From a virus, in the IMG/VR virus record IMGVR_UViG_3300027709_000056, positions 135,811 to 199,810 of that record: a DNA stretch of 64,000 nucleotides; one strand, given 5' to 3'. Below, in pieces: positions 1 through 6,388 of this stretch (position 1 is its first letter; each line of letters opens with the position of its first letter). Under the pieces are notes generated by a model. That model did no database searches and was not told where the DNA came from. It saw only the letters and a program-made list of their open reading frames with translations. A program made the position numbers and the translations under genes.

Positions 1-287
1 GAATCTATTTCTTCTTGTTGTAGCAAATCTTCAGGCTTTCGTGGAATGTTATACTTGGCACAATAATGGTTAATGCCTTGTTTAACCATGGGTAACATCG
101 CTAGTTTCGTATCAATCGGATTGCCTGACTTTAAGTTGTCCTGCATACCAGCAATTGTTGGATAATATTGTTTACGATAAAACATAGGATCGTTCTTCAT
201 ATGAATATGAAGGTCCTCTACAACATTAAAGCCTAACTCTGGCTTCTCGGCTGGGTCTTGTTTATCTATAAATTCAGTTATTTTCAT
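1..287 (-). CDS. hypothetical protein, truncated by window edge
   Basis: Manual read: ATG at 287 (MKITEFIDKQDPAEKPELG...), open to base 1; starts 2 nt after the stop of the upstream mini-gene. Confidence 0.75.
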   Translation of the reverse strand, partial: MKITEFIDKQDPAEKPELGFNVVEDLHIHMKNDPMFYRKQYYPTIAGMQDNLKSGNPIDTKLAMLPMVKQGINHYCAKYNIPRKPEDLLQQEEID

Positions 288-289
288 AA

Positions 290-394
290 TTAGTCTTCTG
301 TCCTAGTACAGCATTCACAACGCATTTGAGAGGTGCATTCGCATGGATCACACGTACATCTATCGCTGGAACATTGGTCGTTATTACAAGCCAT
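290..394 (-). CDS. 34-aa Cys-rich metallothionein-like peptide (not in ORF track)
   Basis: Manual translation MACNNDQCSSDRCTCDPCECTSQMRCECCTRTED, 9 Cys; AGGAGG SD and TAAATA motif upstream. Confidence 0.8.
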   Translation of the reverse strand: MACNNDQCSSDRCTCDPCECTSQMRCECCTRTED

Positions 395-435
395 AACAAA
401 ATCCTCCTATATAGAGTATTTATCAGACTTAATGA

Positions 436-705
436 CTATACGGAAATTTCTACGTCGAAGTGATTGTAGCCTAAATCGAATAATTTATTGGCAATACGTT
501 CAGCTACTATTGTGGATTCGGAGTCTTTAAGGGCTTTATGTGTTTCTACAGTTAATACAAGTCCACCCTGTTCAGTTTCCATTAGTTGATAGTTTGTTTC
601 ATCTTCAAGTAATGCTTCATCGGCGCAATTAATAACTGCATCAGCAACTACTCCGTCTACATCATCAACTTTCTTTTCCCAAACTACGTTAATAAAGTGT
701 TTCAT
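436..705 (-). CDS. hypothetical acidic protein
   Basis: ORF in co-oriented gene string. Confidence 0.75.
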   Translation of the reverse strand: MKHFINVVWEKKVDDVDGVVADAVINCADEALLEDETNYQLMETEQGGLVLTVETHKALKDSESTIVAERIANKLFDLGYNHFDVEISV

Positions 706-1751: not shown

Positions 1752-4001
1752 CTAATGGATTGTATGTTCAACTTCTTCTATATTTAATACAAATTCCTTA
1801 TCTTTAACGGCTATGTTAACTTTTCCACCATCTTTTAATTTACCAAACAATAACATCTTAGATAATGGACGTTTAATATCATTATCTATAACTCGCTGTA
1901 ATGGCCTTGCACCCATTTTTTGACTAAAGCCTTTATCAACTAATACATCTATAGCTTCATCAGAAATAGTAATGTCAACATCTTTATCTTTTAACATAGT
2001 TTTTAATTGTACTAAGAACTTACCAACAATTTTTATCATTGTATTTTTATCTAATTTACTAAATGTAACAACACCATCTAATCTATTTCTAAACTCTGGT
2101 GGAAAGAATCGTTTAAGTTCAGCATCTTCAAAGTCAGGCTCTTCAGAACCAAATCCTATTAGTGTTTTTTCTGCGTCTTCGGCCCCTAAATTAGTTGTTA
2201 ATATTAAAATAATATTTCTACAATCTGCTGTTTTACCGTTACTACCTGTAATAAATCCGTTATCCATTATTTGTAATAACAATGAACTAACATCAGGGTG
2301 TGACTTTTCAATTTCGTCTAGTAATAAAACACAATTAGGTGTTTCTTGTAATGCTGTAATAAGTTGCCCTGCATTTTCTTCAAATCCTACATATCCTGGA
2401 GGTGAACCAATTAGTTTAGCAACAGAATGCTTCTCTTGGAATTCACTCATATCAAATCTAACAAGTTTTACACCTAGTTGGAATGCAAGTTGTCTAGCAG
2501 TTTCAGTTTTACCTATACCTGTTGGACCCATAAACACAAAAGAACCAATTGGTTTACGTTCTTCTTTAAGTCCTGCTTGGGCAACAAGAATTTTATCAAC
2601 TACATTTTTAAGAGCTTTATCTTGTCCATAAATTTCACCCTGAAGATTCTTCTCTAAATTAGCAAGATTACTTGTTTCTTTTTCTTTAATTTGCTCTTCA
2701 GGAAGATTAACCATTTTTGCTAATTCAAATTGTATTTCTTCGGCCTGAACAAATTTATTATCCGGAGTTGTAACTGATTTAATATTAAATCTAGAACAAG
2801 CACAATCAAGTAAGTCAATAGCTTTGTCAGGTAGCTTTTTATCTGTTTGATATTTGATGCTTAACTTAATTGCGGCATCAACAGCGTCTTCTGTAATAGT
2901 AGTATTATGAAATTCTTCATAATATTTTTTAATTCCCATTAAAATTTCTTTTGTAATTTCTTTACTAGGTTCATCAACAGTAACTCTAGCAAATCTACGC
3001 ATTAATGCCCTATCATTTTCAAAGTACTTGCGGAATTCTTCCCAAGTAGTAGATGCAACTACTTTAATATTGCCTCTAGTTAATACAGGTTTTAACATAT
3101 TTGCAAGATCGTTTGAACTGCTACTACCAGCCGCTCCTGCTCCACTAATCATATGTGCTTCGTCGATAAACACAATAGTTTTACCACGTTTCTTTAATGC
3201 TGTAATTACTAACTTAAAGCGTTCTTCAAAATCTCCTCTATACTTACTACCGGCTAACATAGAACCAATGTCTAAATTATAAACATTATATTCTTGTAAA
3301 AATACAGGACATTCTTTCTTTACAATTTTCCAAGCAAGTCCTTCTGCTATAGCAGTTTTACCTACACCAGGATCACCAACAAGTAATACATTATTCTTTG
3401 AACGTCTACCAAGTGCTAATGCAATTGTATCTAATTCTTCGTGTCTACCTACTACAGGATCAATTTTACCTGCATCAACTGATTGATTTAAGTTTGTTGT
3501 AAATGAACGTAATGCTCTAGTAGCCAATCCTGATACTTCTTCATCTTCATAATTGGCTTCTAATTCGTTGTTTAAATAATCTGCAAATTTAGTCTTATCA
3601 ACATCTGCTTTAGCAATATGAAAGTATGCCCATGATTTAGTTTCGTTCATCATACTAAGAAATACGTCTGATATTTCAATATGTTGTCGTCCACTAAACA
3701 ATACCTGTGTAAATGCTCTATTAAGAACACGTTCAACAGCATGAGTTTTCTTAGGCTTGTATTTTTTACCTTGAACTTCAGCAGTTTCGATAGCTTGTAA
3801 GTTGTTTTTTAGATAATGCTCAAGATTCTTTTTAATTAATTCGTGGTCAGTTCCGAATCCTTCTAAAATTTTTGCGAAGCTTTCCTCACAGAGCATGGCA
3901 AACAATAAATGTTCAATAGTTACGTATTCATGCTTTAACTTTTTTGAAACATCTACTGCTTTATCAAAAACCAACTGTAATTGTTCACTGGGTTCTACCA
4001 T
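1752..4001 (-). CDS. clpA: ATP-dependent Clp protease ATP-binding subunit ClpA
   Basis: Clp-N HEYVTIEHLL; two AAA+ modules GDPGVGKT and GPTGIGKT; IFIDEAH, LLLDEIEK, GSPPGYVG, MGARPL. Confidence 0.95.
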   Translation of the reverse strand: MVEPSEQLQLVFDKAVDVSKKLKHEYVTIEHLLFAMLCEESFAKILEGFGTDHELIKKNLEHYLKNNLQAIETAEVQGKKYKPKKTHAVERVLNRAFTQVLFSGRQHIEISDVFLSMMNETKSWAYFHIAKADVDKTKFADYLNNELEANYEDEEVSGLATRALRSFTTNLNQSVDAGKIDPVVGRHEELDTIALALGRRSKNNVLLVGDPGVGKTAIAEGLAWKIVKKECPVFLQEYNVYNLDIGSMLAGSKYRGDFEERFKLVITALKKRGKTIVFIDEAHMISGAGAAGSSSSNDLANMLKPVLTRGNIKVVASTTWEEFRKYFENDRALMRRFARVTVDEPSKEITKEILMGIKKYYEEFHNTTITEDAVDAAIKLSIKYQTDKKLPDKAIDLLDCACSRFNIKSVTTPDNKFVQAEEIQFELAKMVNLPEEQIKEKETSNLANLEKNLQGEIYGQDKALKNVVDKILVAQAGLKEERKPIGSFVFMGPTGIGKTETARQLAFQLGVKLVRFDMSEFQEKHSVAKLIGSPPGYVGFEENAGQLITALQETPNCVLLLDEIEKSHPDVSSLLLQIMDNGFITGSNGKTADCRNIILILTTNLGAEDAEKTLIGFGSEEPDFEDAELKRFFPPEFRNRLDGVVTFSKLDKNTMIKIVGKFLVQLKTMLKDKDVDITISDEAIDVLVDKGFSQKMGARPLQRVIDNDIKRPLSKMLLFGKLKDGGKVNIAVKDKEFVLNIEEVEHTIH

Positions 4002-6143: not shown

Positions 6144-6388
6144 TATTTTTTCTCCAACTTGTTAATGCGTTTTTCCATAGCCTCTAGTTTTTCTTTAAGA
6201 ATAGGGAATTTTTTCATCTGCTTTTCTTCGTCTGTTATCAGTTTTATGTGGTAGCGTTTTGCCGCCCAAGTGTATAATTCATCTATTTTATTATAAAACC
6301 AGACACCTAGTTTTGTGCCGCGAAACCATTTTTCAGTTGCGCCGCCTAAAATACTTCCTGCAATAGCTTTTATAAGAAAAAACCACAT
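6143..6388 (-). CDS. hypothetical protein
   Basis: ORF with GGAG SD and TAAATA at 6414-6419. Confidence 0.75.
   Translation of the reverse strand: MWFFLIKAIAGSILGGATEKWFRGTKLGVWFYNKIDELYTWAAKRYHIKLITDEEKQMKKFPILKEKLEAMEKRINKLEKK

Follow-up and report, generated by a model that had tools for sequence, protein, structure and literature searches.

A nine-cysteine acidic phage peptide encoded behind a late-type promoter: a probable metal–thiolate cluster peptide of an undescribed family

We describe a short gene near the start of a 64,000-nucleotide stretch of viral DNA (the window), which encodes a 34-residue acidic peptide with nine cysteines. The gene is real and under purifying selection. 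By its sequence, the product is most probably a metal–thiolate cluster peptide, and we see about an even chance that holding or donating metal ions is its function as such. Judged from sequence searches, the family to which it belongs is undescribed and nearly confined to viral contigs. The window forms the final 64 kb of a 199,810-bp IMG/VR record that is 56% complete according to CheckV, and the major capsid protein shares 67–76% identity with its counterparts in the jumbo myoviruses PA5oct, CBB, Vibrio 2.275.O and Phosso.

The coding sequence, including the stop, occupies positions 290..394 on the minus strand, with an ATG start and a TAA stop. The first-pass annotation had called a minus-strand ORF of 34 residues with nine Cys and no aromatic residues, and the frame is present as described. 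The peptide has a mass of 3.84 kDa, a pI of about 4 and a Cys content of 26.5%, the highest among the 239 ATG-initiated ORFs of at least 30 residues in the window, where the runner-up reaches 16%. Its cysteines are located at positions 3, 8, 13, 15, 18, 20, 26, 28 and 29, giving the skeleton C-x4-C-x4-C-x-C-D-P-C-x-C-x5-C-x-C-C with three CxC motifs, one C-x2-C motif and one CC motif. Phe, Trp, Tyr and His are all absent, and the 34 residues contain no signal peptide, leader or hydrophobic core. The stop codon (290-292) and the ATG (285-287) that begins the following gene, of 114 aa, are 2 nt apart, in agreement with the spacing given earlier. The gene is present in a single copy, since the family profile matches only 290..394 in the 200-kb record.

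Evidence for selection on the protein comes from the orthologous loci. Six syntenic loci with five distinct sequences (L002, L003, L004/L017, L005 and L018) carry a frame of 32–36 codons in the same slot, and all nine Cys are kept in each of them. Pairwise dN/dS values between the orthologues are 0.05–0.2, far below 1, with dS near or beyond saturation, and eight of the nine Cys columns toggle between TGT and TGC. Every orthologous locus retains the start codon, the Shine–Dalgarno sequence and a stop near the start that follows. Conservation of the frame and of its cysteines in syntenic relatives, and the dN/dS ratio, were the checks that the first-pass annotation had set for this gene, and both speak for it. 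A chance ORF, or conserved DNA without a protein product, is scarcely credible as an explanation. The ORF is indeed very short, and its exact sequence is missing from a collection of 15 billion proteins; however, the low dN/dS at saturated dS, the synonymous toggling of the Cys codons, the conserved start, Shine–Dalgarno sequence and stop, and a family of at least 40 distinct sequences all stand against this explanation.

Regarding expression, a Shine–Dalgarno sequence AGGAGG lies at 403..408 on the minus strand, 8 nt before the ATG, and is found as AGGAGG or AAGGAG in all orthologous loci. A perfect AGGAGG precedes only six of the 203 crude gene calls in the whole record. Further upstream is the late-type promoter element GATAAATA (417..424, minus strand), which contains the TAAATA at 417-422. 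Both the Shine–Dalgarno sequence and the TAAATA motif had been noted in the first reading, and both are located where it placed them. The 17-nt block around GATAAATA (410-426) is invariant in the six orthologous loci. The minus strand of the window carries nine copies of GATAAATA (5′ ends at 424, 1069, 6421, 18865, 20231, 23770, 26437, 41486 and 53356) and the plus strand has none, and every copy lies 12–33 nt before a gene start. In the 200-kb record, 14 of the 18 copies are positioned 8–45 nt upstream of same-strand starts, a location for which 2% of positions qualify. The genes behind these elements include ones that match baseplate, tail-fibre and virion-protein PHROGs. The T4 late promoter has the consensus TATAAATA, and the arrangement seen here is that of a T4-type late promoter, i.e. 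a TATAAATA-like octamer in the sense orientation shortly upstream of late or structural gene starts. By position and sequence, we assign GATAAATA as a T4-late-type promoter.

This promoter is not private to the peptide gene. The first-pass annotation had spoken of the gene's own promoter; a late-type promoter is present, but exclusive ownership does not hold, because relatives carry the element before other genes. [G/C]ATAAATACT follows the 89/90-aa gene also where the next gene is a 124-aa or a 114-aa gene. Since the element is found in the slot of relatives without the peptide gene, the promoter belongs to the slot. Read from these signals, the peptide gene is the promoter-proximal first cistron of a late operon.

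The slot is bounded upstream by an 89-aa gene (436..705, minus strand), the stop of which precedes the promoter element. This gene served as the synteny anchor and recovers six syntenic viral loci. Downstream, the start portion of the 114-aa gene occupies 3..287 on the minus strand of the window; the gene is complete in L001:1247-1588 (-) and is likely to be co-transcribed with the peptide gene. It has 17 syntenic homologues in viral contigs and gave no match in Pfam or, by tblastn, in GenBank phages. Two genes downstream of the peptide gene and outside the window, a 336-aa gene (L001:237-1244 (-)) resembles cytidylyltransferase PHROGs in its first 200 residues, while its remainder has no assignment. 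The slot of more distant relatives is either empty (L007 and L010) or filled by an unrelated gene of 122–124 aa (L008, L009 and L011-L016, at 2630-3004 or 1994-2368). The peptide gene is thus an accessory insert.

To describe the family, we scanned sequence collections with a degenerate DNA pattern encoding C-x-C-D-P-C-x-C-x5-C-x-C-C. In IMG/VR, this pattern matched 60 viral stretches encoding 40 distinct peptides of 30–47 aa. The same scan of 185,579 species genomes returned five stretches, two of which are family members, both on small contigs of metagenome-assembled genomes (MAGs). One of these (L087; CAYWYX010000272.1) is a 1.9-kb contig binned into an Acidobacteriota MAG; it holds the complete phage neighbourhood of DUF1353, CxxC protein, nine-Cys gene and membrane proteins, and is therefore a mis-binned phage fragment. 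A profile search of 1.8 billion protein representatives yielded 30 more matches, all unnamed and metagenomic, of which 29 are 30–36 aa long and the remaining one is a 133-aa artefact. No model in Pfam, PHROGs or NCBIfam matches the peptide or any of 48 aligned members. PDB sequences gave no match to two profiles at E values up to 10, and tblastn of two family members against GenBank phages found nothing real, in a search where the BLAST low-complexity filter may hide Cys-rich matches. Searches of the literature turned up nothing on the nine-Cys family; the papers retrieved concerned bacterial and eukaryotic metallothioneins, and one 2026 preprint lists 'metallothioneins' among viral auxiliary-gene candidates. 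The earlier suggestion that the family may be undescribed is borne out across these resources.

In the alignment, all 48 members share the seven C-terminal Cys as well as the Asp and the Pro, and there is no indel from the third to the ninth Cys. The Asp-Pro pair was imposed by the DNA pattern, yet it is present in all 30 profile matches, where it was not imposed. The first Cys is usually followed by Asn and the sixth by Thr or Ser, and the strongly conserved non-Cys residues are N5, D16, P17 and T21. Nine Cys are found in 43 of the 48 members, while the other five have eight through the loss of a five-residue C-x-N-x-x unit. A 15-nt unit (C-N-N-P-E) is present or absent among near-identical contigs (L035, L042, L049, L053 and L067 versus L039, L044, L047 and L079). 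The nine-Cys and eight-Cys alleles both recur on several contigs; thus, a strict nine-ligand cluster is not required. Over the 48 members, the composition is 25% Cys, 23% Asp plus Glu, 9% Asn, 8% Pro and about 1% aromatic residues, with a pI of about 4, and 34 members have no aromatic residue at all.

These features place the peptide close to metallothioneins in one respect. It shows the three traits of the operational metallothionein class, namely a mass below 10 kDa, a high Cys content arranged as CxC, CC and CxxC, and few aromatic residues. The label 'metallothionein-like' used in the first reading is appropriate for the composition only, as no match in sequence or fold to any metallothionein was found. 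The Pfam model of BmtA/SmtA, PF02069 (Metallothio_Pro, 33-bit cut-off), matched neither the peptide nor any of the 48 members at E values up to 10, and in a six-frame search of the record it gave only an unrelated 12.9-bit match with an internal stop; the Synechococcus elongatus genome was detected as the control. A search for BmtA in 300 genomes returned one sub-threshold SmtA-like finger, and one family member reached an E value of 0.42 against Metallothio_Euk.

We then weigh whether the peptide is a truncated cyanobacterial BmtA/SmtA homologue captured from a host, a kinship with SmtA having been drawn in the first-pass annotation. Both are small Cys-rich proteins of the prokaryotic world. 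The peptide has a C-x-C-x2-C-x-C motif at positions 13-20, and the N-terminus of SmtA presumably carries a similar C-x-C-[DE]-P-C-x-C octet. However, the capture explanation fails on the family model, given the null result with PF02069 for the peptide and the 48 members, and the strict pattern found no cellular members in the 185,579 species genomes beyond the two small MAG contigs. BmtA and SmtA hold a Zn4 cluster on a zinc-finger fold, in which a Tyr/Ala contact is conserved and His residues serve as metal ligands (PMC3323870). In the phage peptide the zinc-finger core, the Tyr/Ala pair and the His ligands are all absent; it is also about 20 residues shorter and has no segment for the hairpin and helix. 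The proposed kinship is therefore not upheld, and a captured BmtA/SmtA is extremely unlikely.

Another parallel is offered by nine-Cys cluster domains. Classical metallothioneins are rich in Lys and Ser. The metallothionein beta domain of vertebrates and crustaceans has about 30 residues and nine Cys, which form an M(II)3Cys9 cluster (PMC10243857). The phage peptide resembles this domain in its size, its nine Cys, its CxC motifs and in having neither aromatic residues nor regular secondary structure, and by analogy its folding would be expected to depend on the metal cluster. There is, on the other hand, no detectable relation in sequence or fold, the phage peptide is strongly acidic and not Lys/Ser-rich, it stands alone behind a late promoter, and some members of its family have eight Cys. 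The second parallel is the CXC/pre-SET group (MSL2, tesmin/TSO1 and SUV39), in which a Zn3Cys9 cluster can be the structural core for binding and not a store of metal (PMC3447885). The Cys residues of the MSL2 CXC domain are 525, 527, 539, 544, 546, 553, 556, 558 and 561, and the CXC spacing is C-x-C-x11-C-x4-C-x-C-x6-C-x2-C-x-C-x2-C (PMC3447885). Nine Cys in a short irregular chain are common to CXC/pre-SET domains and the phage peptide, whereas CXC domains are eukaryotic, occupy about 50 residues inside large proteins and have another Cys spacing, and Pfam detects none in the peptide. The beta domain and the CXC domains provide the precedent for nine Cys holding three Zn (PMC10243857, PMC3447885).

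The predicted structure is in line with such a peptide. AlphaFold, run on the family alignment, gives an irregular chain with one four-residue helix at a pLDDT of 75, as expected for a peptide whose fold would be templated by metal. Foldseek comparison of this model with PDB, BFVD and VIA-align wide found no match, a result that is uninformative for an irregular chain of 34 residues. The ESM Atlas returned sub-threshold neighbours only, and the one protein-language-model neighbour that hints at a metallothionein, at 0.80, is within the chance range.

Our preferred reading follows from the composition. The peptide lacks a hydrophobic core and one residue in four is Cys, so that it would fold only around metal. 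A tiny acidic cytoplasmic peptide would thus wrap its thiolates round a small metal cluster of the metallothionein type, containing two to three divalent ions (Zn or Cd) or a larger number of Cu(I) ions, and would hold metal ions or hand them over in the infected cell. Because the gene lies behind a late promoter and has one of the strongest ribosome-binding sites of the genome, the peptide is probably made in quantity late in infection. We infer the translation level, the metal binding, the stoichiometry and the physiological role from these features.

The conserved positions outside the cysteines point partly in another direction. N5, D16, P17 and T21, together with the strong acidity, fit a folded interaction module better than a generic metal sponge. 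The metal cluster could accordingly be scaffolding, with a zinc-stabilized mini-domain binding a partner protein, either a prohead or virion protein from the late operon that the gene heads or part of a lysis or late membrane module that neighbours the gene in other phages. We consider this a possible reading with a real, if minor, chance of being right. It is consistent with the conservation of non-Cys positions and the rigid spacing across lineages at about 40% identity, with the acidic surface and with the position of the gene at the head of a late operon, beside genes that have weak virion-protein matches. In the CXC/pre-SET group, a Zn3Cys9 cluster can likewise serve binding and not buffering (PMC3447885).

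Since a partner protein might be encoded nearby, the genomic contexts bear on this reading. Clustering of the neighbours resolves about 13 context types among the 60 loci. In the commonest context (16 loci), the primase shares 47–53% identity with the primases found in Methylophilales phage Melnitz and in the Pelagibacter phages Mosig and HTVC008M. The order in this context is Rz-like spanin, DUF1353 protein, small CxxC protein and peptide, followed by a membrane protein of about 85 aa, a two-helix membrane protein of about 54 aa, a DUF7201 protein and the primase. Melnitz and HTVC008M, cultured pelagimyophages with the same backbone as one carrier lineage, have no nine-Cys gene in the slot that precedes the primase. 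In other contexts, the peptide gene precedes a spanin, follows a transglycosylase-domain protein, precedes a T4-lysozyme-like gene that adjoins phoH, is flanked by tail-fibre and scaffold genes, or neighbours a virion structural protein. A lysis-type gene, counted as an Rz-like spanin, a lysozyme- or transglycosylase-domain gene or one of the small membrane proteins of clusters 0 and 2, lies within 2.5 kb in five of the roughly 13 context types (38 of the 60 loci), which also favours a scaffolding role in a lysis module. By a rough estimate, this proximity exceeds chance; the context types are not independent, and we treat it as a lead only.

On the opposite side, no partner gene is common to all contexts. 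The roughly 13 neighbourhoods and the variable slot in the lineage of the window together indicate that the peptide does not depend on a fixed partner. In the genome of the window, homologues of the spanin and of the 85-aa and two-helix membrane proteins are sited elsewhere, away from the peptide gene, and the homologue of the cluster-0 (about 85-aa) membrane protein is 5.7 kb distant. This 81-aa homologue (6146-6388, minus strand; 56% identity) starts with MWF, combines an N-terminal membrane helix with a coiled coil and has its own GATAAATA. Its cluster-0 relatives (for example L034:3877-4131) are encoded directly after the nine-Cys gene in 18 pelagimyophage-like loci, with spanin and small two-helix membrane-protein genes as further neighbours. 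The 6146-6388 protein has no Pfam or PHROG match, and tblastn of the cluster-0 protein against GenBank phages found nothing real; it may be a component of a lysis module. In one lineage, a CxxC protein of 51–64 aa is encoded directly upstream of the nine-Cys gene (L034:3606-3779 (+), L028, L031 and L058), and the same protein is found downstream of it in L057. Its sequence includes a C-x2-C-G-x2-S-H-C-G and a C-x2-C-x-C-x2-C motif; it matches no family, and the genome of the window does not encode it.

The search for longer relatives returned proteins of 84–133 aa in which the peptide is seemingly fused to the CxxC, the 114-aa or the 85-aa protein (P0032-P0052, P0007 and P0050). At every apparent junction, these proteins have Gln where the nine-Cys loci have TAG or TAA, so that the 'fusions' are gene calls made under another genetic code. 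For example, translation of L081:3655-3918 (-) with TAG as Gln reproduces P0037 letter for letter, and the TAG in L081 overlaps the Shine–Dalgarno sequence of the next gene. We therefore rejected the fusions as two neighbouring genes joined by a stop read as Gln, and these artefacts lend the scaffolding reading no support. More generally, 'fusion' proteins in databases can arise from stop codons read as Gln.

Two of the long proteins are of a different kind. P0031 (660 aa) and P0053 (565 aa) are genuine surface proteins of bacteria, with SLH domains behind a signal peptide, and contain 4–7 tandem repeats of 24 residues, with the same spacing C-x4-C-x-C-D-P-C-x-C-x5-C as in the phage peptide. 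This shared unit in SLH proteins, together with a Cys density like that of knottins or toxins, might suggest a secreted disulfide-rich peptide or the precursor of a ribosomally synthesized and post-translationally modified peptide (RiPP). Such an origin is very unlikely for the phage peptide, which has no signal peptide or leader, and no maturation, export or modification enzyme recurs in any of its contexts.

The choice of metal bears on a further alternative. Cu(I)–thiolate clusters typically involve CxC and CC motifs, and phytochelatins are an example of acidic Cys-rich peptides that bind soft metals. The motifs and the composition of the phage peptide fit both patterns, and the present data discriminate no metal. 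A redox-active thiol peptide, or a carrier of Cu(I) or an Fe–S cluster, guarding late infection from oxidative or copper stress instead of handling Zn or Cd is nevertheless an unlikely reading: the CxxCxxC...CP motif of ferredoxin type is absent, and there are no redox or copper genes among the annotated neighbours.

Finally, still shorter peptides may be connected with the family. A looser Cys-only DNA pattern, for which the matches listed are mostly simple TGC/TGT repeats, found at least five nine-Cys ORFs of 20–22 aa on viral contigs (L106, L111, L123, L149 and L168). In each of the five, a gap-free alignment matches all seven Cys that are invariant in the longer family, C-x-C-x2-C-x-C-x5-C-x-C-C. 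When each was compared with 200 composition-matched shuffles, the numbers of shuffles scoring as high as or higher than the real peptide were 0, 1, 1, 4 and 32, with scores of about 0 bits. Both groups have nine Cys in total, two of which are placed differently in the 20–22-aa peptides compared with the 30–47-aa family. Only the 30–47-aa family has the D-P signature, the N-terminal C-x-N-x2-C-x4 extension with two Cys and the acidic tail. Kinship between the two groups is suggested by the pattern only, and a shared cluster architecture would be compatible with it. As relatives, the 20–22-aa peptides would leave almost no surface besides Cys, which is a further point against a partner-binding scaffold. 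In a wider and rather doubtful proposal, the D-P branch of 30–47 aa and the branch of 20–24 aa would form one phage superfamily of metal-cluster peptides, which many unrelated ocean phages make late and in bulk in order to seize the trace-metal economy of the host (Zn, Cd and Cu) or to couple metal or thiol state to the timing of lysis. The lysis-timing option is drawn from the way in which the gene recurs next to genes for spanins, lysozymes and small membrane proteins.

In summary, the nine-Cys peptides form a conserved gene family that lies below the length threshold of many gene callers. If they bind metal as we propose, phages would carry metallothionein-type proteins of their own, unrelated in sequence to the described families and expressed from late promoters. 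In the waters of the closest cultured relatives, free Zn is at picomolar levels (PMC3323870). With metal binding, the handling of trace metals would join the host functions that phages reprogramme, and strong metal ligands would be released at lysis.
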